Sequence record: MN850574.1
Source: Escherichia phage kaaroe
Length of the DNA: 64,000 nucleotides
Direction: 5' to 3' (one strand)
Every line of letters begins with the position of its first letter. Positions within the stretch are counted from its first letter, which is position 1. Positions 8,550 to 61,853 of this stretch are shown here, piece by piece. The notes below the pieces were generated by a model, which saw only the letters and a list, made by a program, of their open reading frames with translations, had not been told where the DNA came from and made no database searches. Both the position numbers and the translations under genes were made by a program.

Positions 8550-8578
8550 GCTCACATCGAAAACAACGAGAGGACAAC

Positions 8579-9118
8579 ATGATGATGTTTTGTGTACTGA
8601 ACAAAGAAGTTAAACTTCGTAAACTGGAAATTGGCGATGGTGTTGTTGTTAAAATGCACGCTAGCACATTGACTAGTTTTAATTTAAAGGAAAGTTTTTT
8701 TATTAGAGGAACGGTGGTTAATATCTGCTGGAGTAAAGGCGAAGGAATCCGTAGCTTTTGCGTAATTGACGATGATAATAACCTGTATGTGATTCGCTAT
8801 CATAATAATTCTGTATTGGTCTATACCGACAATTCACGAGAATTGTATACTCTTGAATTTGTTAAGCGTACTGATTGCGATCGATTTGTTCGTGCTTATG
8901 AAGAAGATGGCTGTTTTGCGACTGAAACAGAAACAAATGAATATGTTCCTATGGAAGTAGGAGCAGAAATTAAACACAAGATCACGGATCGTATTTTTAA
9001 GGTTGTTGCGGTTGCTCATACTCAATTTGTAGCGCAAGCGCCGGATGAAGAATTTATTATCTACAATATTGGTAATGCAAGTTCTCATTTTCATAATGTA
9101 CTATATCGCGACCTTTGA
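8579..9118 (+). CDS. hypothetical protein
   Basis: ORF downstream of promoter with GAGAGG RBS. Confidence 0.5.
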   Translation: MMMFCVLNKEVKLRKLEIGDGVVVKMHASTLTSFNLKESFFIRGTVVNICWSKGEGIRSFCVIDDDNNLYVIRYHNNSVLVYTDNSRELYTLEFVKRTDCDRFVRAYEEDGCFATETETNEYVPMEVGAEIKHKITDRIFKVVAVAHTQFVAQAPDEEFIIYNIGNASSHFHNVLYRDL

Positions 9119-10394: not shown

Positions 10395-10922
10395 ATGGAA
10401 TGGGAAGTTGGTAAAACTTACAAGATTGAATGCGAAGCGTCGAAAGCCGAACTGACTAAATTTTCGTCGTCTATTAACAGATGTATTGTTGACTTGTTGG
10501 CTGGTCGCCCGTTTAGGGTAGAAGACCTTGACGATGATGGTGATGTTAGAGAAATTACTATTATTGGTAGTGATTTCGACTCTATGACGTTAAAAGAATC
10601 CCCTATTGGTTGTTCTGGTGTGTGGTTTTGGTCGGGTGAGCGTCGTTTCTTTACCGAAGTTACTATTGAACCTAAGATTCCAGATTCAGAAGAAAAAGAA
10701 GAAGACCTAACTTTAGAACGCCTGGGTCTGCTTATGGAAGCCTACGACATTCAGTTGATCGATAAGATGGGGTTACATAATAGCATTGCCAAAATTACTA
10801 CCCTAGAAGGTATTAAGAGCGTACTGGATGGTATGCCTAGCCGGATCGGTGCTATCAGAGAATACAAACAAACGCGCGACCGTATGATCCAATTAGAATC
10901 ACGTATCAAAAATGAGAGATGA
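10395..10922 (+). CDS. hypothetical protein, paralog family B member 1
   Basis: N-terminal MEWEVGKTYK motif shared with the next three genes. Confidence 0.55.
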   Translation: MEWEVGKTYKIECEASKAELTKFSSSINRCIVDLLAGRPFRVEDLDDDGDVREITIIGSDFDSMTLKESPIGCSGVWFWSGERRFFTEVTIEPKIPDSEEKEEDLTLERLGLLMEAYDIQLIDKMGLHNSIAKITTLEGIKSVLDGMPSRIGAIREYKQTRDRMIQLESRIKNER

Positions 10923-10926
10923 TATT

Positions 10927-11391
10927 ATGAAATGGGAAGCTGGTAAGACCTATGCGTGGAAAGATGTAAAAGATGCAAACCAATTTTTTAAATGGTATGA
11001 TGTTGATTATTTGAAATATCTGCGATTACCGTTTAAAGTTGCGTCGGTTGATGCGAAAAAAGGATACGTGCGGTCTGTTTATCTTCATGATGGAACTTAT
11101 ATGAGTTCAACCGATGTAGGTCTATCTTGTTGGTTTCTGGATCATGACCGTAGCAGATTTGAAGAAATTATTATTCCAGAAGAATCTAAATTAATTGACC
11201 TTCTCAAATTGGCGATGGATAATTATAAAATTCGCTTTGAATGCAAATCACATGCGGCTATCGGTGCTAACGCCTTGCGTCATATCTCCAGTTTTGAAGA
11301 GTTGAAAGATTTTCTTGACAAAATGCCGGAAAGAGTGCAAGCTATACAGGAAGCTGAGAAAGCATTAAACGAACTTGATAAAATCGGTTAA
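10927..11391 (+). CDS. hypothetical protein, paralog family B member 2
   Basis: MKWEAGKTYAWKD N-terminus; C-terminal helical tail resembling other family B members. Confidence 0.55.
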   Translation: MKWEAGKTYAWKDVKDANQFFKWYDVDYLKYLRLPFKVASVDAKKGYVRSVYLHDGTYMSSTDVGLSCWFLDHDRSRFEEIIIPEESKLIDLLKLAMDNYKIRFECKSHAAIGANALRHISSFEELKDFLDKMPERVQAIQEAEKALNELDKIG

Positions 11392-11403
11392 GGGGAATAT
11401 ATT

Positions 11404-12228
11404 ATGAAATGGGAAATTGGTAAAACTTACACTTGGAAAGATGAAAACGCGAAAACTGAGTTTATTACTAACGGAGAAGGTGTTCTTTCTCCACTTAACA
11501 GCGATATCAGTGCAGCTATTGGTGACAAGCCATTTACCATCATCGAGATCGAGGGTAACGGTTGGATTGATGCAATAGAGCTAGACGGTGTTTATCATAC
11601 GGCGAAAACTGCTACAGGAAAAGACATTTGGACTGCAACATATTTCTTTAGTCCATTCGATAGAAAATTCTTTCGTGAAGTTGAAGAAGTTCCCCAGAAA
11701 TGGGAAGTTGGTAAAACTTATACTTGGAAAGATGCGAATGCTATGACCGACTTCTGTCATTATGCTGAAAACGTATCTAACCTTAATTATGTTATTGCAC
11801 GAGCAATAAATTATAGACCTTTTACTGTTAAAAATGTTAGTCCATGTGGGCAAGTTAATGTAATTGAAATTGATGGTAAAGACCATACTCTAATGAGTGC
11901 AACCGAAGATAGCGACCATAAAGGAACTAGCTGGTTTATTGATTCTGATAGAAAATTCTTTCGTGAAGTAGAAGAATTGGAAGTTATAACCACTGATTCT
12001 AAGATCGTTGGACAGTTGAAACGTCTGTTTAGTAGTCGTTATGGCCTGACAATGGTTAAATTTAGCGAAGCAAATGAAGGTAAAACCTTTGAACGTTTCG
12101 ATGATTTCATCGCAGCACTTGACAAGATGGACGAAATAATGCAAGATCGCCAGAAGATTAAAGACCTTCAAGAAGACATTAAACGTCGTGAAGTTGAATT
12201 TTTGATTGGTAAAGAGCGAGGTTGGTAA
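11404..12228 (+). CDS. hypothetical protein, paralog family B member 3 (two tandem modules)
   Basis: MKWEIGKTYTWKD and a second internal QKWEVGKTYTWKD; repeated DRKFFREVEE. Confidence 0.6.
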   Translation: MKWEIGKTYTWKDENAKTEFITNGEGVLSPLNSDISAAIGDKPFTIIEIEGNGWIDAIELDGVYHTAKTATGKDIWTATYFFSPFDRKFFREVEEVPQKWEVGKTYTWKDANAMTDFCHYAENVSNLNYVIARAINYRPFTVKNVSPCGQVNVIEIDGKDHTLMSATEDSDHKGTSWFIDSDRKFFREVEELEVITTDSKIVGQLKRLFSSRYGLTMVKFSEANEGKTFERFDDFIAALDKMDEIMQDRQKIKDLQEDIKRREVEFLIGKERGW

Positions 12229-12229
12229 T

Positions 12230-12706
12230 ATGTTTGTTGTTGGCATGACCTATCAGTGGAAAAACGAACAAGCGCGTAAAGCCTTTGCAACCAGTGATGC
12301 GAATCGTGTGATCTCCGAGTTTATCGGGGACCGTCAGTTTAAAGTCTTAGCTATTGATTCATCTACTATACCTGAATATGTTTCTGTGATTGAAATCGAT
12401 GGTAAGGCTTACCAGTGTCCAGACAATGAAAAGGTTTATCTTTATGCTTGTAATTGGTTTTCACCTACCGAAGATCAATATTTTAAAGTAGTATCAGCAG
12501 AACTATCATCCGAAGCAATGATGCAACAATTCTTCAATAACTACGAAGTTTCTGTGCGTCGCTATGGCGAAGAAGAAGTGTTTAAAATCGATGATTACAA
12601 TCAGTTTAAACGAGTATTCGCCACTAAGTTGCAGCGTGACTTTGAACGTGACCAACGGATCAAGGAACTGGAAGAAGAACTAGAAAGATTAAAGGCTGAG
12701 AAATGA
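12230..12706 (+). CDS. hypothetical protein, paralog family B member 4
   Basis: MFVVGMTYQWKNE N-terminus and coiled-coil C-terminus. Confidence 0.55.
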   Translation: MFVVGMTYQWKNEQARKAFATSDANRVISEFIGDRQFKVLAIDSSTIPEYVSVIEIDGKAYQCPDNEKVYLYACNWFSPTEDQYFKVVSAELSSEAMMQQFFNNYEVSVRRYGEEEVFKIDDYNQFKRVFATKLQRDFERDQRIKELEEELERLKAEK

Positions 12707-12972
12707 TCGAGATATACGGTATACCGAAAGAGGCTTATCATTGTTATGGTTGTATTAGTGCAATGAAGCTACTGGATGATCTGGGTATTCCGTATACACT
12801 TAAACCAGTATTCAAGCAGGTCGGGGTTGACATTATTCCCGACCGTGATATGATTGAAGAACTGGCGGGGAGGCTGAACTCAAAGAGCCTCCGGTTTGTA
12901 TACCCCCAGATATTCATTGACAACGAGCACATTGGAGGCTATAAAGAACTGAGGGCGATTTATGATTATTGA
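12703..12972 (+). CDS. nrdH: glutaredoxin-like protein (NrdH-like)
   Basis: CYGC redox motif and YPQIFIDNEHIGGYKEL; sits beside nrdG as in T4. Confidence 0.65.
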   Translation: MIEIYGIPKEAYHCYGCISAMKLLDDLGIPYTLKPVFKQVGVDIIPDRDMIEELAGRLNSKSLRFVYPQIFIDNEHIGGYKELRAIYDY

Positions 12973-13120
12973 GAATTTAGTTTCGGTATTCATTATTGCT
13001 TTATTTGCTATAATGGCTTTACCGTTGAAGAAGTGTAAACACTGTAACGGAACAGGATTGCGTGGTGATGGGTGTTGCGCTCATTGTCATGGATCTGGTA
13101 AAGTAAGTATCATTAAGTAA
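12962..13120 (+). CDS. small membrane-anchored peptide with DnaJ-type CxxCxGxG zinc finger (52 aa)
   Basis: Unlisted ORF; hydrophobic N-terminus NLVSVFIIALFAIMAL followed by CKHCNGTG..CCAHCHGSG. Confidence 0.3.
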   Translation: MIIENLVSVFIIALFAIMALPLKKCKHCNGTGLRGDGCCAHCHGSGKVSIIK

Positions 13121-13141
13121 TTCTTGAGTGAGGAATATATT

Positions 13142-13429
13142 ATGTTAGTACACAATGCAATCGCACACATGGTTTATTCTCGATTTGGGCGCATGGAAGA
13201 AATCAATATTACCGACGCAGATTTAGATCTGATGCAAGTCGAAGGCCAGACATATCTGAAAAATAACGGCGTGAATATCGGTAAAGCGCGTGTGCGTGAA
13301 TTGTTGGTTGAATATATTCTCTCTGAATTTGGCATTAGTGCTTTCGGTGTGAAAGAGATTGCACCTAAGCGCGAAATTTCTGATAAAATGATCAAGAAAT
13401 GCCAGAAAGAACGACGTAAGGGTTTCTAA
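13142..13429 (+). CDS. hypothetical protein
   Basis: GAGTGAGGAATATATTATG start context. Confidence 0.5.
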   Translation: MLVHNAIAHMVYSRFGRMEEINITDADLDLMQVEGQTYLKNNGVNIGKARVRELLVEYILSEFGISAFGVKEIAPKREISDKMIKKCQKERRKGF

Positions 13430-14898
13430 TGAAGATTGAAACATTAATCGCATTGCCAGCGGCGGGGAAAACTGATGCTATACTTTCCCACGTCCTAGAG
13501 ACAAAAGAAAAAGCGGTTATTGCTTCGCCATCTCGTGTTTTAAGTGAACAATCTTACAATAAGTTTAAAAGAATGGGCGGTCGTGCTGTCTTGATTGATA
13601 GCACAAGACTAAGAAGCCTTAAGACAGTGCAAGCGTCGATAATGCAATCAGTTAAAGATGGTGCTGATGTGATATTCATTACACATACAGCGTTATCTAA
13701 TATGGAACGTTCAAAAATGTTTGGTGATTATGCTCTTTACATTGATGAAGTTCCTCAACTGGTTGAATTTAATGAGTATCCGTTTAAGTCTAATCTTGAA
13801 CTTATCACGAAGCATTGCGAACCAATCGCCGACGAATCGGAATGCCTACAGAACTTAGTTCTAAAAGACTCTGAGAAGGCCGCTATCAAAGAAAAGATAG
13901 AAAGTGCGAAGGATGGTACTGATATGATCGATTCTTCTCTTAGAGGGCTTTATGAGGCGTTATTAGAGAAGAAAATCAACGTTATGGTAAAACATAACGA
14001 AGGACACCGGAAGAATGGGTCGAAAATTGTTTTCTTGAACGATAACAAACACGGTACGTGGGGAGACTTTAAAAAGGTTACGATAGCATGTGCAAATCTC
14101 TTTGATACATATAGTGGGAAGTATCTACGATACTATGCAAATTGCGATTTTGTTCCGAGTGCGCTAGAATCCAGACTATATTTCAAAGAGTATAAAAATA
14201 CAGATAGAGTTAATATCATCCTTATGACGGACTCTGAACGATGGTCGCGTCACCAGTCAGAAACAAACAATACCTTTGAACGTCTTGTTGATATGGTTAA
14301 AAATGAATGTGGCGATGACTTCATTTATACCGTGAATCGGGACCGTGAAGCGTGTACAAATGGTATTGGTGAGCGGATACCTTACGGGTCTTATGGTCTT
14401 AACTCTTACATTCATCATAAAAATGTTGCTGTGATGTTCAGCTTTAACCCTCAACGATGGGAGATTGATATTTTAAAAGGTCTTGCTAATAGTTGTGATC
14501 TCCCGACAAACGAGTTTTTGAAAGCGCGTCATGTGTCTGATTATCTGGAACCAGCATTTCAATTATGTTTGCGTTGTAACCTGAGAGACAACGAGAGCAA
14601 GGAGAATGTTAATCTATATGTTCCTGATTGGGCGTTGGTGGATTATCTAAAAACGTTTCTGCCTAATGCCAATGTAATAACAGATCGAATGATTCCGCTA
14701 GAATGTGGTGAACGTAAAGGGCGAAAATCATTTAAAAAGATGTTCGACTTTAACGAGCAAGAGAATGCAAGATTTAACGGATTTAAGTACCGCATGAAGA
14801 AAAAAGGAAAAACTCTTGATCCGTCTGACGGCGAATCTGTAGAGATGGTTAGAGTGTGGATAACTAAGCAAAGAAAGTATAATGGTAATGGGGAATAG
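13429..14898 (+). CDS. putative P-loop NTPase/helicase-like protein
   Basis: Walker A-like LPAAGKTD near N-terminus and Walker B-like LYIDEVP; no T4 counterpart recognised. Confidence 0.45.
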   Translation: MKIETLIALPAAGKTDAILSHVLETKEKAVIASPSRVLSEQSYNKFKRMGGRAVLIDSTRLRSLKTVQASIMQSVKDGADVIFITHTALSNMERSKMFGDYALYIDEVPQLVEFNEYPFKSNLELITKHCEPIADESECLQNLVLKDSEKAAIKEKIESAKDGTDMIDSSLRGLYEALLEKKINVMVKHNEGHRKNGSKIVFLNDNKHGTWGDFKKVTIACANLFDTYSGKYLRYYANCDFVPSALESRLYFKEYKNTDRVNIILMTDSERWSRHQSETNNTFERLVDMVKNECGDDFIYTVNRDREACTNGIGERIPYGSYGLNSYIHHKNVAVMFSFNPQRWEIDILKGLANSCDLPTNEFLKARHVSDYLEPAFQLCLRCNLRDNESKENVNLYVPDWALVDYLKTFLPNANVITDRMIPLECGERKGRKSFKKMFDFNEQENARFNGFKYRMKKKGKTLDPSDGESVEMVRVWITKQRKYNGNGE

Positions 14899-17148: not shown

Positions 17149-17400
17149 ATGATTACTAATGCATTGAAAGAAATCAACGAAGGTTTATCGAAATTCACTA
17201 AGATCCATGTATTTGAGGTTGTGCGAGATGGTCAGTATATGCTATCATTTCGATCTAACTATGGTTTGTGGACTCATGACGAAATCCCATTTGATCGTGA
17301 AAATATCACCAAAGAGGGGCTAACAAACATCGTATCCCGTAAGGTTGCTGATATTACCCAGAATGTTATTGCGCGTGGATCTATGGGGTCTGTACGATGA
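17149..17400 (+). CDS. hypothetical protein
   Basis: GGAGG RBS then ATG 17149. Confidence 0.45.
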   Translation: MITNALKEINEGLSKFTKIHVFEVVRDGQYMLSFRSNYGLWTHDEIPFDRENITKEGLTNIVSRKVADITQNVIARGSMGSVR

Positions 17401-17714
17401 AAACACTTGCACAAAAGGTAATGGAATTTAATGAGGCATTGCCTATGTTTGCTCGACGTAAGGGGATCTCCGTTGATGTATGGTATTCCAAAGAGCATGA
17501 AGAAGTTCGGATGATGGTCGAAAAGCGACTCACTGATACTACCGTTAAGTGTAAGTTTCGCTCTATTCCTCGCGCGGAAATAGAATTTGATGAAAGCTAT
17601 TACTTTACGCTGCGTCATGTACTGAAACAAGCAGTGGATGAACTTTTAGAAGACCTGAAACAATATGAGATTGAACGAGGAACATATTATGAATACGACT
17701 ATGGTCGCGGCTGA
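17397..17714 (+). CDS. hypothetical protein
   Basis: ORF with overlapping start. Confidence 0.45.
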   Translation: MKTLAQKVMEFNEALPMFARRKGISVDVWYSKEHEEVRMMVEKRLTDTTVKCKFRSIPRAEIEFDESYYFTLRHVLKQAVDELLEDLKQYEIERGTYYEYDYGRG

Positions 17715-56734: not shown

Positions 56735-56742
56735 TATTTATA
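56735..56742 (-). promoter_or_regulatory. T4-type late promoter TATAAATA
   Basis: TATAAATA on - strand about 30 nt upstream of gene 36 ATG. Confidence 0.6.
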
Positions 56743-56903: not shown

Positions 56904-58043
56904 TTAATCAACATCGAACTCTTTAAAGTTGTTGGATGTGATGTGTTTATTATCTCTGGGTAGTTTAAGAAGACTCATTACAGGGTTAGTAAAATCACCG
57001 TTATCCTGAATATGAGTTGTTCTAACACCATTAACACCAAATGAAGTAGGACCAGTAGTTTTGACAACTCCACTGATCGGCGTTATTAGTATGTTTCTAA
57101 TTTTAACAATACCTTCATTGGAGTTGGTTGGATATCTGATACAACCAGTTACTACACTATCAACTCCTTCCGGTACGGTATAGACGGCTTCAAACTTTTC
57201 CCATTGGTCTTTTTTGCTGGCATTGTATCGAACACCAGTTTGATATTGTCCATCGGTGAAGTAGTTGTGATAGAAACGCGCTGTTACGTTGGCTGCGGCT
57301 GCGGCACTATCACGGAACAATTCAAAGGATATTGATAGTTTGTCACCTGCCTTTATGTTAAAATCCTCAAGTGGGGCGCTGGTCTCATCATGAGGCCATT
57401 GTATTAGCTCGAAATGTTCGGCATCTTCGCTAACATACTCAACCGGATAATCTAAAAATCGTTGTGGTGTTCCTGTTATAGCAAGATCATCTATAGTATC
57501 ATAGACTTTCTCAATTTGTATAGATGAATCTTGTCCTTCCCCGTGAGTTGCTTGCATCCCTTCGCACACAATTTTACCCATTTTAGTAGAATAAATTGCT
57601 GCATATGATACACGAGGCATTTGCTGTAGCAAAATGTGATTCGGGAATGATACAGATCCCAGCTTAGAGAATACACCATCACTGATCGGATCTGCAAACA
57701 ATTCTCCATGCGTTGCCATCGCAATGATATAGTCACCTTTCAGCAAAGAAAGATAATCACGCATTGCCAAAACAGCACCGCGACCATAGAATACCTTTTC
57801 TTCGTGTAGTTGTCCAGTTGGAGTAAGAACTTTAAAATTTAGGCCATTTTCATAGCCAGTGCCAACGATCTCCACTCCATTAAATCTAATCCTTGCTGGT
57901 TTGGTAGAATCCGCATTAGATCCGCGCACTTCCAGCTTATACATCACAGAGTTATTTTCTGAAATGCTGGTAAATGTCGCAGAGTCTTCGTCGAAATGCG
58001 CAAACCTAATTCCAGTGTTGCGTAATTCTATATCTTGTGTCAT
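56904..58043 (-). CDS. 35: long tail fiber hinge connector gp35
   Basis: Position between 34 and 36; NNSVMYKLEVRGS, VSYAAIYS and FGVNGVR resemble recalled T4 gp35 segments. Confidence 0.75.
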   Translation of the reverse strand: MTQDIELRNTGIRFAHFDEDSATFTSISENNSVMYKLEVRGSNADSTKPARIRFNGVEIVGTGYENGLNFKVLTPTGQLHEEKVFYGRGAVLAMRDYLSLLKGDYIIAMATHGELFADPISDGVFSKLGSVSFPNHILLQQMPRVSYAAIYSTKMGKIVCEGMQATHGEGQDSSIQIEKVYDTIDDLAITGTPQRFLDYPVEYVSEDAEHFELIQWPHDETSAPLEDFNIKAGDKLSISFELFRDSAAAAANVTARFYHNYFTDGQYQTGVRYNASKKDQWEKFEAVYTVPEGVDSVVTGCIRYPTNSNEGIVKIRNILITPISGVVKTTGPTSFGVNGVRTTHIQDNGDFTNPVMSLLKLPRDNKHITSNNFKEFDVD

Positions 58044-61845: not shown

Positions 61846-61853
61846 TATTTATA
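61846..61853 (-). promoter_or_regulatory. T4-type late promoter TATAAATA
   Basis: TATAAATA on - strand 29 nt upstream of gene 34 ATG. Confidence 0.6.

Follow-up and report, generated by a model that had tools for sequence, protein, structure and literature searches.

A small gene overlapping nrdH in Krischvirus-like phages encodes a predicted membrane-anchored zinc-knuckle protein

Two-Repeat Zinc Knuckles and a Small Phage Protein

Modules of two CxxCxGxG repeats are known as protein-binding devices. Anti-TRAP (RtpA), found in Bacillus subtilis and B. licheniformis (PDB 2BX9 and 3LCZ), is a stand-alone one-zinc knuckle of 53 residues that blocks TRAP and acts purely by binding this other protein. 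Its two motifs are separated by a 6-residue spacer. It is a soluble protein that assembles into trimers and dodecamers through a C-terminal helix, and it serves tryptophan regulation in Bacillus. A second case is FIP (FtsH5-interacting protein, At5g02160), a eukaryotic plastid protein found only in land plants. It is one of the DnaJ-like zinc-finger membrane proteins without a J domain. Apart from its transit peptide, it consists of a hydrophobic anchor and, behind it, a C4 finger that contains two CXXCXGXG motifs. The finger faces the stroma, the cytoplasm-equivalent side, and FIP acts by binding the membrane protease FtsH5 in the thylakoid membrane (PMC5915565). In HMO-2011-type marine phages, a two-repeat module is found within the DNA polymerase (PMC9038755). 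The same repeat unit occurs in the Cys-rich domain of DnaJ (1EXK, PF00684), where four repeats form two interleaved zinc centres, placed between the J domain with its G/F region and the client-binding domains. Here we describe a 52-residue protein encoded at positions 12962-13120 of a 64,000-nucleotide stretch of Escherichia phage kaaroe (sequence record MN850574.1), the whole of which is referred to as the window. The protein is a membrane-anchored, single-centre variant of the DnaJ/anti-TRAP kind of zinc knuckle.

A Conserved Gene Between nrdH and gp55.2

The window comes from an RB49-like T4-type phage of the genus Krischvirus (Straboviridae). The small open reading frame (ORF) and its immediate surroundings contain the following features:

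12962-13120, plus strand: small ORF with ATG start and TAA stop (13118-13120), 52 residues, MIIENLVSVFIIALFAIMALPLKKCKHCNGTGLRGDGCCAHCHGSGKVSIIK; membrane-anchored zinc-knuckle protein, orthologue of RB49p046
12951-12955, plus strand: Shine-Dalgarno sequence GAGGG, 6 nt upstream of the small-ORF ATG
12962-12972, plus strand: overlap of nrdH and the small ORF, 11 nt; the nrdH stop TGA is at 12970-12972, and the small-ORF ATG lies 8 nt ahead of it
12977-13027, plus strand: predicted transmembrane helix, codons 6-22, LVSVFIIALFAIMALPL, from hydropathy and charge count (helix over residues 2-19 in an AlphaFold model)
13034-13057, plus strand: first CxxCxGxG motif, CKHCNGTG (C25, C28, G30, G32)
13076-13099, plus strand: second CxxCxGxG motif, CAHCHGSG (C39, C42, G44, G46)
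12703-12972, plus strand: upstream gene, nrdH-like glutaredoxin of 89 residues with active site CYGC
13142-13429, plus strand: downstream gene gp55.2 (DUF7570), followed by a 489-residue DEAD-like helicase and then the late sigma factor gp55

An earlier note on this DNA had described an unannotated ORF at these positions that overlaps the nrdH stop codon and encodes a hydrophobic N-terminus and two zinc motifs. All of these elements are present as it described them; "unannotated", however, was true of the ORF track used for that note alone, as the coding sequence is called in public records. Overlaps like that with nrdH are typical of translationally coupled genes. A strongly hydrophobic stretch of 17 residues (residues 6-22, mean Kyte-Doolittle value 2.8) is preceded by an acidic 5-residue tail with a near-invariant Glu4 and followed by Lys-Lys. 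The two motifs are 6 residues apart, and a 6-residue C-terminal tail lies behind the second. In a six-frame translation of the whole 64 kb the CxxCxGxG pattern was found three times, twice in the small ORF and once in a stretch containing stop codons; because it is otherwise so rare, the pair in the small ORF is more than a chance occurrence.

Homologues were sought by an exhaustive HMMER search over 1.84 billion representative proteins and by three word-indexed searches. As far as these searches reach, the family is limited to two lineages of virulent Enterobacterales myoviruses. It is small (52-60 residues), has a common architecture, and is found at two genomic positions, one in Krischvirus-like T4-type phages and the other in the Ounavirinae. 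Bases 12400-13700 of the window match 58 phage records at 95-99.5% identity, and all 58 of these Krischvirus records also encode the small protein at 95% identity or more. The gene order in Krischvirus-like phages is always nrdH, the small ORF, gp55.2, the helicase and gp55, and this order persists even in relatives from metagenomes with a NrdH of only 56-66% identity to that of the window. Across six T4-type loci, in which nrdH identity to the window falls from 98% to 56%, the ORF is retained together with its start codon and its Shine-Dalgarno sequence, which reads GAGGG or AAGGAG in every case. The overlap with nrdH measures 11 nt in four of these loci (L053, L056, L057 and L062) and 8 nt in L061; in the sixth, L058, a shorter nrdH of 82 residues stops 9 nt ahead of the ORF and there is no overlap. 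In the Ounavirinae the homologue lies directly upstream of rIIA-rIIB in all three genera (Felixounavirus, Suspvirus and Kolesnikvirus), and in the first two it overlaps the end of a gene for a 111-residue protein of unknown family (p111).

Conservation within the family is concentrated in the knuckle. Eight positions do not vary at all (M1, C25, C28, G30, C39, C42, G44, G46), and four more (E4, G32, G37, K47) are nearly invariant. Cys38, in whose place some members have Pro or Val, is therefore predicted not to be a ligand. In the copy of phage SUSP1 (locus L065, 17143-17322) the first motif is degenerate, reading CDECEGSD with the last Gly changed to Asp, and the spacer is one residue longer; its close relatives P0038 and P0040 retain CxxCxGxG. 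From this substitution, the glycine positions are taken to be less strict than the cysteines. A single-sequence scan of IMG/VR returned, beyond two Krischvirus contigs, unrelated proteins bearing CKHCNGTG, including true DnaJ of large phages and other Cys-rich proteins. These hits confirm the motif type and were not used as whole-protein homologues.

The small ORF is a genuine gene, conserved and under purifying selection. When the DNA of four near-isogenic phages was aligned, the flanks were almost invariant, including the Shine-Dalgarno sequence, the ATG and the Shine-Dalgarno sequence of the next gene, and divergence lay within the body of the ORF, where all length differences are whole codons. 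The pairwise ratio of nonsynonymous to synonymous substitution rates (dN/dS) is 0.14-0.43. The earlier note had allowed that the frame might turn out not to be conserved in related genomes; the opposite was found, as frame, start, Shine-Dalgarno sequence and the four ligand cysteines are kept across two phage lineages at about 45% protein identity. A frame open by chance between nrdH and gp55.2 and never translated could be suspected from its very short length and from a homologue whose knock-down had no effect on fitness (see below). Such a frame would not be expected to preserve its start, its Shine-Dalgarno sequence and all of its zinc ligands despite saturation of synonymous divergence, and in another phage subfamily as well, to take indels only in multiples of three with dN/dS below 1, or to have significant motif similarity to DnaJ and anti-TRAP. 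Together with the 58 records that encode the protein, this evidence led to rejection of the spurious frame, to which we assign a negligible probability.

Public Annotation and Family Membership

The gene is already on record, both as a hypothetical protein and within a PHROG, and its motif has been noticed by some annotators. The RB49 orthologue (RB49p046, NP_891617.1) is labelled "hypothetical protein" in GenBank and the counterpart in phage Ec_Makalu_001 "putative membrane protein", while other homologues carry the labels "chaperone protein DnaJ", "heat shock protein" or "membrane protein". The sole family reached by the small protein is PHROG 3931 (E = 4.3e-10 and 40.5 bits; residues 7-48 of the protein align with positions 15-56 of the 59-position profile), which is listed as of unknown function. 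The protein belongs to this family; as the family has no functional annotation, membership names the protein and explains nothing. The SUSP1 homologue AVU07_agp080 was assigned to the same family (phrog_3931) by Adler et al. (PMC11879866, supplement 8).

In Pfam, NCBIfam and PADLOC no model matched the small protein above any curated cutoff, and the PADLOC-DB defence models gave no match at E up to 10 with three family representatives. Several sub-threshold matches (GRXCR1-2_C, zf-AtTam37, DUF5351, Gad1, lambdoid Q, NrdD and N_methyl) were not used, as they rest on the generic CxxC(xGxG) pattern or on a hydrophobic helix. The C-terminal Cys-rich domain of GRXCR1/2 (PF23733) scored 17.6 bits against a cutoff of 26, its best stretch being 12 residues of the generic motif, and 14.8 bits with the Felixounavirus homologue. 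The Gabija anti-defence protein Gad1 (PF25705) scored 12.0 bits with the window protein and 16.5 bits with homologue P0006 against a cutoff of 27, over the last 19-29 profile positions only. Also rejected was a resemblance to the N-terminus of type IV pilins, for which PF07963 (N_methyl) scored 9.7 bits (E = 0.87; cutoff 21.2). Prepilins begin with a basic leader whose last residue is Gly; the hydrophobic helix that comes next carries Glu5, and the topology is N-in/C-out. The small protein has no leader and no Gly at position -1, and its charge distribution is the opposite. Translocation of the N-terminal tail of an N-out anchor, as in the Pf3 coat protein, is a simpler explanation for the conserved acidic residue. 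Nothing relevant was found in the literature on a characterised phage homologue, on gene expression in RB49 or Krischvirus, or on a zinc motif in Gad1.

The Zinc-Knuckle Domain

The earlier note had read the protein as a transmembrane helix fused to a DnaJ-type CxxCxGxG finger, with the motif spacing of DnaJ Cys-rich domains, and the profile comparisons bear this out. With the single sequence as query against all PDB sequences, the Cys-rich domain of E. coli DnaJ (1EXK) was found at E = 9e-6. With the family profile the same domain was reached at E = 3.5e-10 in a gap-free alignment to DnaJ repeats 3-4, so that the spacing equals that of these two repeats. The profile also aligned without gaps to anti-TRAP (3LCZ, E = 7e-5, residues 10-34; 2BX9, E = 0.014), with the same 6-residue spacer. 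A weak further match was obtained with Arabidopsis EMB2737 (8XKU, E = 0.058). The four conserved cysteines of the two repeats (Cys25, Cys28, Cys39 and Cys42) can form one predicted Zn(Cys)4 site as in anti-TRAP.

The phage protein has the repeat unit of DnaJ, CxxCxGxG continued by G-x-V. It is nonetheless no DnaJ, as it falls below every curated cutoff and lacks a J domain. Against the PF00684 gathering score of 32.7, the small protein reaches 14.6 bits and its homologues 14.8-19.6 bits; NCBIfam DnaJ models give 11-19 bits against cutoffs of 338-619. In contrast to the four repeats and two centres of DnaJ, the phage protein has two repeats, at most one centre, and otherwise only a membrane helix. 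No J-domain (HPD) match was found in Pfam or NCBIfam, and the 24 residues before the motifs are taken up by the 5-residue tail, the helix and the Lys-Lys linker, with no G/F region. There is no room for the client-binding C-terminal domains I and II or for a dimerisation region, as the protein ends 6 residues past the second motif.

The likeness to anti-TRAP is closer in scale. The two proteins are of nearly the same length (52 and 53 residues), both have two motifs with a 6-residue spacer, and the four ligand cysteines are invariant in the phage family. In place of the C-terminal assembly helix of anti-TRAP, the phage protein has an N-terminal membrane anchor, and it extends just 6 residues past the second motif. 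Moreover, the NCBIfam RtpA model (NF058604) scores it at 12.8 bits against a cutoff of 65. The phage protein is thus an analogue or distant motif relative of anti-TRAP, not a member of its family. With FIP it shares the order of hydrophobic anchor and two-motif finger and, if its knuckle is cytoplasmic as predicted below, the side of the membrane on which the finger lies; this is a likeness of architecture only.

Membrane Topology and Expression

The N-terminal tail has a net charge of 0 or -1 in all eight representatives compared, and basic residues follow the helix (Lys-Lys in the window protein). The Cys-rich C-terminal domain is net positive in seven of the eight. From this charge distribution and the positive-inside rule, an N-out/C-in orientation is predicted, which would put the zinc knuckle right at the membrane surface on the cytoplasmic side. 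Zinc-thiolate sites are stable in the cytoplasm. The small protein has neither a basic n-region nor a lipobox, and a cleaved signal peptide or a lipoprotein is therefore unlikely.

A candidate promoter for the gene was found within nrdH:

12827-12854, plus strand: sigma-70-like promoter, candidate early, TTGACA-16 nt-TGnTATGAT, 11 of 12 matches with an extended -10 element, 108 nt upstream of the ORF start

All six T4-type loci carry such a site in the corresponding position, with 10-12 of 12 matches, and in two of them NrdH is only 56-66% identical to that of the window. In the most divergent locus, L061, a perfect TTGACA-17-TATAAT lies within nrdH. The site may thus function as a promoter, and if it is real, the small ORF would head an internal early transcript. 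The T4-type late promoter motif TATAAATA was not found near the small ORF, and a late promoter was rejected on this basis. In the whole window the motif occurs twice, against 5.7 times expected by chance, both times on the minus strand near the far end (56735-56742 and 61846-61853); from this scarcity, most of the window would be early-gene territory transcribed from the plus strand. The small ORF is likely to be transcribed early and translated in coupling with nrdH. A coupled pair of a glutaredoxin and a small membrane protein recurs in unrelated form in SUSP1 (L065, 7423-7858), where a glutaredoxin gene beside nrdAB is followed, with an 8-nt overlap, by a 66-residue ORF with two hydrophobic segments that is not homologous to the window ORF.

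Fast Evolution and Dispensability

The small protein evolves much faster than its surroundings, its nonsynonymous rate (dN) being roughly 4-14 times that of the neighbouring genes. In the comparison with contig L056, DNA identity is 92-99% for the flanking genes and 65% for the small ORF; protein identity is 100% for the helicase and 50% for the product of the small ORF. The L056 allele resembles alleles of more distant relatives, and exchange of alleles is therefore likely. The same pattern was found in the Ounavirinae, where flanks of 95-98% identity surround a homologue of 70-72%. There the dN of the ORF is 0.058-0.18 against 0.008-0.025 for p111, rIIA and rIIB, about 7-20 times that of these neighbours, and its dN/dS is 0.23-0.43 against 0.03-0.08. 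Within the T4-type protein, the helix is more relaxed than the knuckle in two of three comparisons with the window (dN/dS of 0.49 vs 0.10 for L053 and 0.68 vs 0.25 for L056). Selection thus appears to be purifying on the scaffold and weak or diversifying elsewhere. Gene-wide positive selection is not supported, as gene-wide dN/dS does not rise above 1, and the claim is kept to fast evolution or relaxed constraint together with allele exchange.

Frameshifted copies were found in two Felixounavirus records, P0034 (Salmonella phage NJ12) and P0035 (Escherichia phage phiWec177); one lacks the membrane helix, and in the other it is the second zinc motif that is gone. They represent either natural loss or sequencing errors, and they fit dispensability. 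The SUSP1 homologue AVU07_agp080 (57142-57321, 59 residues) was scored "Not Fit" in a genome-wide CRISPRi-ART knock-down, in which its depletion did not reduce the fitness of SUSP1 on the laboratory host (PMC11879866, supplements 8 and 16).

Proposed Function and Alternatives

With about even confidence, the protein is proposed to be an accessory factor that holds a protein-binding zinc knuckle at the membrane, modulates a host or phage partner, and is needed only in some hosts. A protein-binding role is the most likely one because the protein is too small for catalysis and only its scaffold residues are conserved. The gene would probably be expressed early, and its product would be a bitopic inner-membrane protein whose acidic tail of 4-5 residues is translocated to the periplasm. 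A single transmembrane helix would follow, and then Lys-Lys, which would hold the C-terminus in the cytoplasm. The C-terminal 28 residues would lie on the cytoplasmic membrane face, folded round a single Zn(Cys)4 centre (Cys25, 28, 39 and 42). At the inner membrane the knuckle would bind a partner and inhibit, tether or retarget it. Candidate partners are a host membrane protein, a membrane-bound defence or exclusion factor, or membrane-associated early proteins of the phage itself, and the function would matter only in some hosts or conditions.

Several points weigh against this proposal. Topology, zinc binding, early expression and protein-binding action are inferred. An AlphaFold model built from ten family members, which places a helix over residues 2-19, is of low confidence (predicted local distance difference test score, pLDDT, of 65). 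In a Foldseek search of the PDB this model retrieved only anti-TRAP chains (root mean square deviation 1.2 A over 28 columns), with E-values that are not significant; model and matches were used as consistency checks only. No gene neighbour is common to both phage lineages, and the genomic context therefore does not point to a partner. The fast evolution of a short protein, one third of which is anchor, could reflect weak constraint instead of an arms race, given a gene-wide dN/dS below 1. Finally, the "Not Fit" score in one phage and one host shows that the gene is dispensable there and is silent on its role.

Other assignments of the active part were considered. The helix could itself be the effector, altering the inner membrane or blocking entry of competitor DNA, possibly together with rIIA/rIIB, with the knuckle serving only to stabilise or oligomerise the protein. 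A small, probably early, non-essential and fast-evolving gene for a membrane protein has the profile of known exclusion proteins, such as Imm and Sp of T4. Moreover, the gene stands directly upstream of rIIA-rIIB in three Ounavirinae genera, the N-terminal sequence MQxYW(L/I)E is strongly conserved within that subfamily, and the rII genes counter the membrane-acting RexAB system (PMC11879866). We nevertheless regard such a superinfection-exclusion or membrane-integrity factor as rather improbable: the Krischvirus gene adjoins nrdH and gp55.2 and not the rII genes, and the strictest conservation is in the zinc knuckle and not in the helix, whose dN/dS is the more relaxed in the comparisons with L053 and L056. 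The location in Krischvirus could suggest instead a redox partner of NrdH, made in stoichiometric amounts through translational coupling, whose cysteines would act at the membrane as a relay, by thiol-disulfide or zinc-redox exchange, for example to supply or withdraw electrons for ribonucleotide reduction. In five of six T4-type loci the ORF and the glutaredoxin gene share 8-11 nt, and GRXCR1/2, to which the sub-threshold Pfam match of 17.6 bits (cutoff 26) was obtained, combine a glutaredoxin domain with such a motif. Disulfide-isomerase activity has been reported for DnaJ Cys-rich domains and for plant DnaJ-like zinc fingers. The homologue in the Ounavirinae, however, is not beside a glutaredoxin gene but between p111 and rIIA, and the ORF of L056 is 50% identical to that of the window where its NrdH is 94% identical, so that the two do not co-vary. 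The GRXCR match covers the generic CxxCxGxG only, and a structural zinc site is indicated by the conserved pair of motifs, which are spaced as in anti-TRAP. A redox partner is thus quite improbable, and a Rosetta-stone argument from glutaredoxin joined to a Cys-rich domain, as in GRXCR1, was rejected as the main explanation because of the Ounavirinae context and the lack of co-variation.

The earlier note had suggested "a regulator or chaperone mimic". A regulator remains in keeping with the evidence, an anti-TRAP-like inhibitor or adaptor being the better analogy. As a chaperone mimic, the protein would be a membrane-tethered DnaJ fragment that binds unfolded clients or DnaK and diverts or recruits host Hsp70 to the membrane. 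The sequence similarity to the DnaJ Cys-rich domain is significant, and some GenBank homologues bear the names "chaperone protein DnaJ" or "heat shock protein". Two of four repeats, however, do not make the two-zinc-centre architecture, and the J domain, the G/F region and the C-terminal client- or substrate-binding domain are all missing. DnaJ models score far below cutoff (14.6 bits vs 32.7; 18.8 vs 377), and hypervariable surface residues fit poorly with binding to the highly conserved DnaK. This part of the suggestion was therefore left unsupported, and we consider it very doubtful. The membrane-held protein-binding knuckle can also be taken further, in a version that we judge unlikely: the family might be a new class of phage effectors of host takeover or counter-defence. 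In such a class, a membrane-tethered anti-TRAP-like knuckle would dock from the cytoplasmic side on a host inner-membrane machine and block or retarget it. Candidates are FtsH, by analogy with the binding of FtsH5 by FIP, and a membrane-bound abortive-infection effector such as channels of the RexB type. The hypervariable surface would then record an arms race with this target.

Other Variable Stretches of the Window

Variation between near-identical phages is also found elsewhere in the window. At 10912-12706 lies a tandem array of paralogous genes encoding proteins of 159, 274 and 166 residues, each opening with a module of the KWE(I/V/A)GKTYTWKD type, which the 274-residue protein contains twice. 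These paralogues match PHROGs 5347, 3710 and 622 and, more weakly, families named "goF mRNA metabolism modulator". The array is among the most variable stretches, with blocks at 10423-10700 and 11740-12500 below 85% identity to L056. Two further divergence islands relative to L056 were found at 8572-9100 and 17150-17600 (below 85% in 60-nt blocks, with 92-99% otherwise). The DEAD-like helicase (489 residues, 13429-14898, PHROG 2467) is 100% identical in protein to that of L056 but 68-70% identical to those of L053 and L057, and gp55 and gp55.2 beside it are 95-99% identical in all three. This mosaic suggests replacement of the whole helicase gene by recombination.

Significance

The finding is sound, but as long as no partner has been identified it is not surprising and bears on no open question, and if nothing is found, the protein would be one of many dispensable hypothetical proteins. 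It is nonetheless tractable: it has 52 residues, a recognisable one-zinc scaffold, a solved structural analogue and many natural alleles, and it yields clear predictions for topology and for ligand mutants. Homologues are present in the well-studied E. coli and Salmonella phages RB49, Felix O1 and SUSP1, for one of which a knock-down tool exists. Small phage membrane proteins constitute a large and mostly uncharacterised pool of host-manipulating factors. Should the partner be NrdH or the rII proteins, a missing component of old phage modules would be assigned. Should it be a host membrane protease or a defence effector, the small protein would provide a new inhibitor scaffold.

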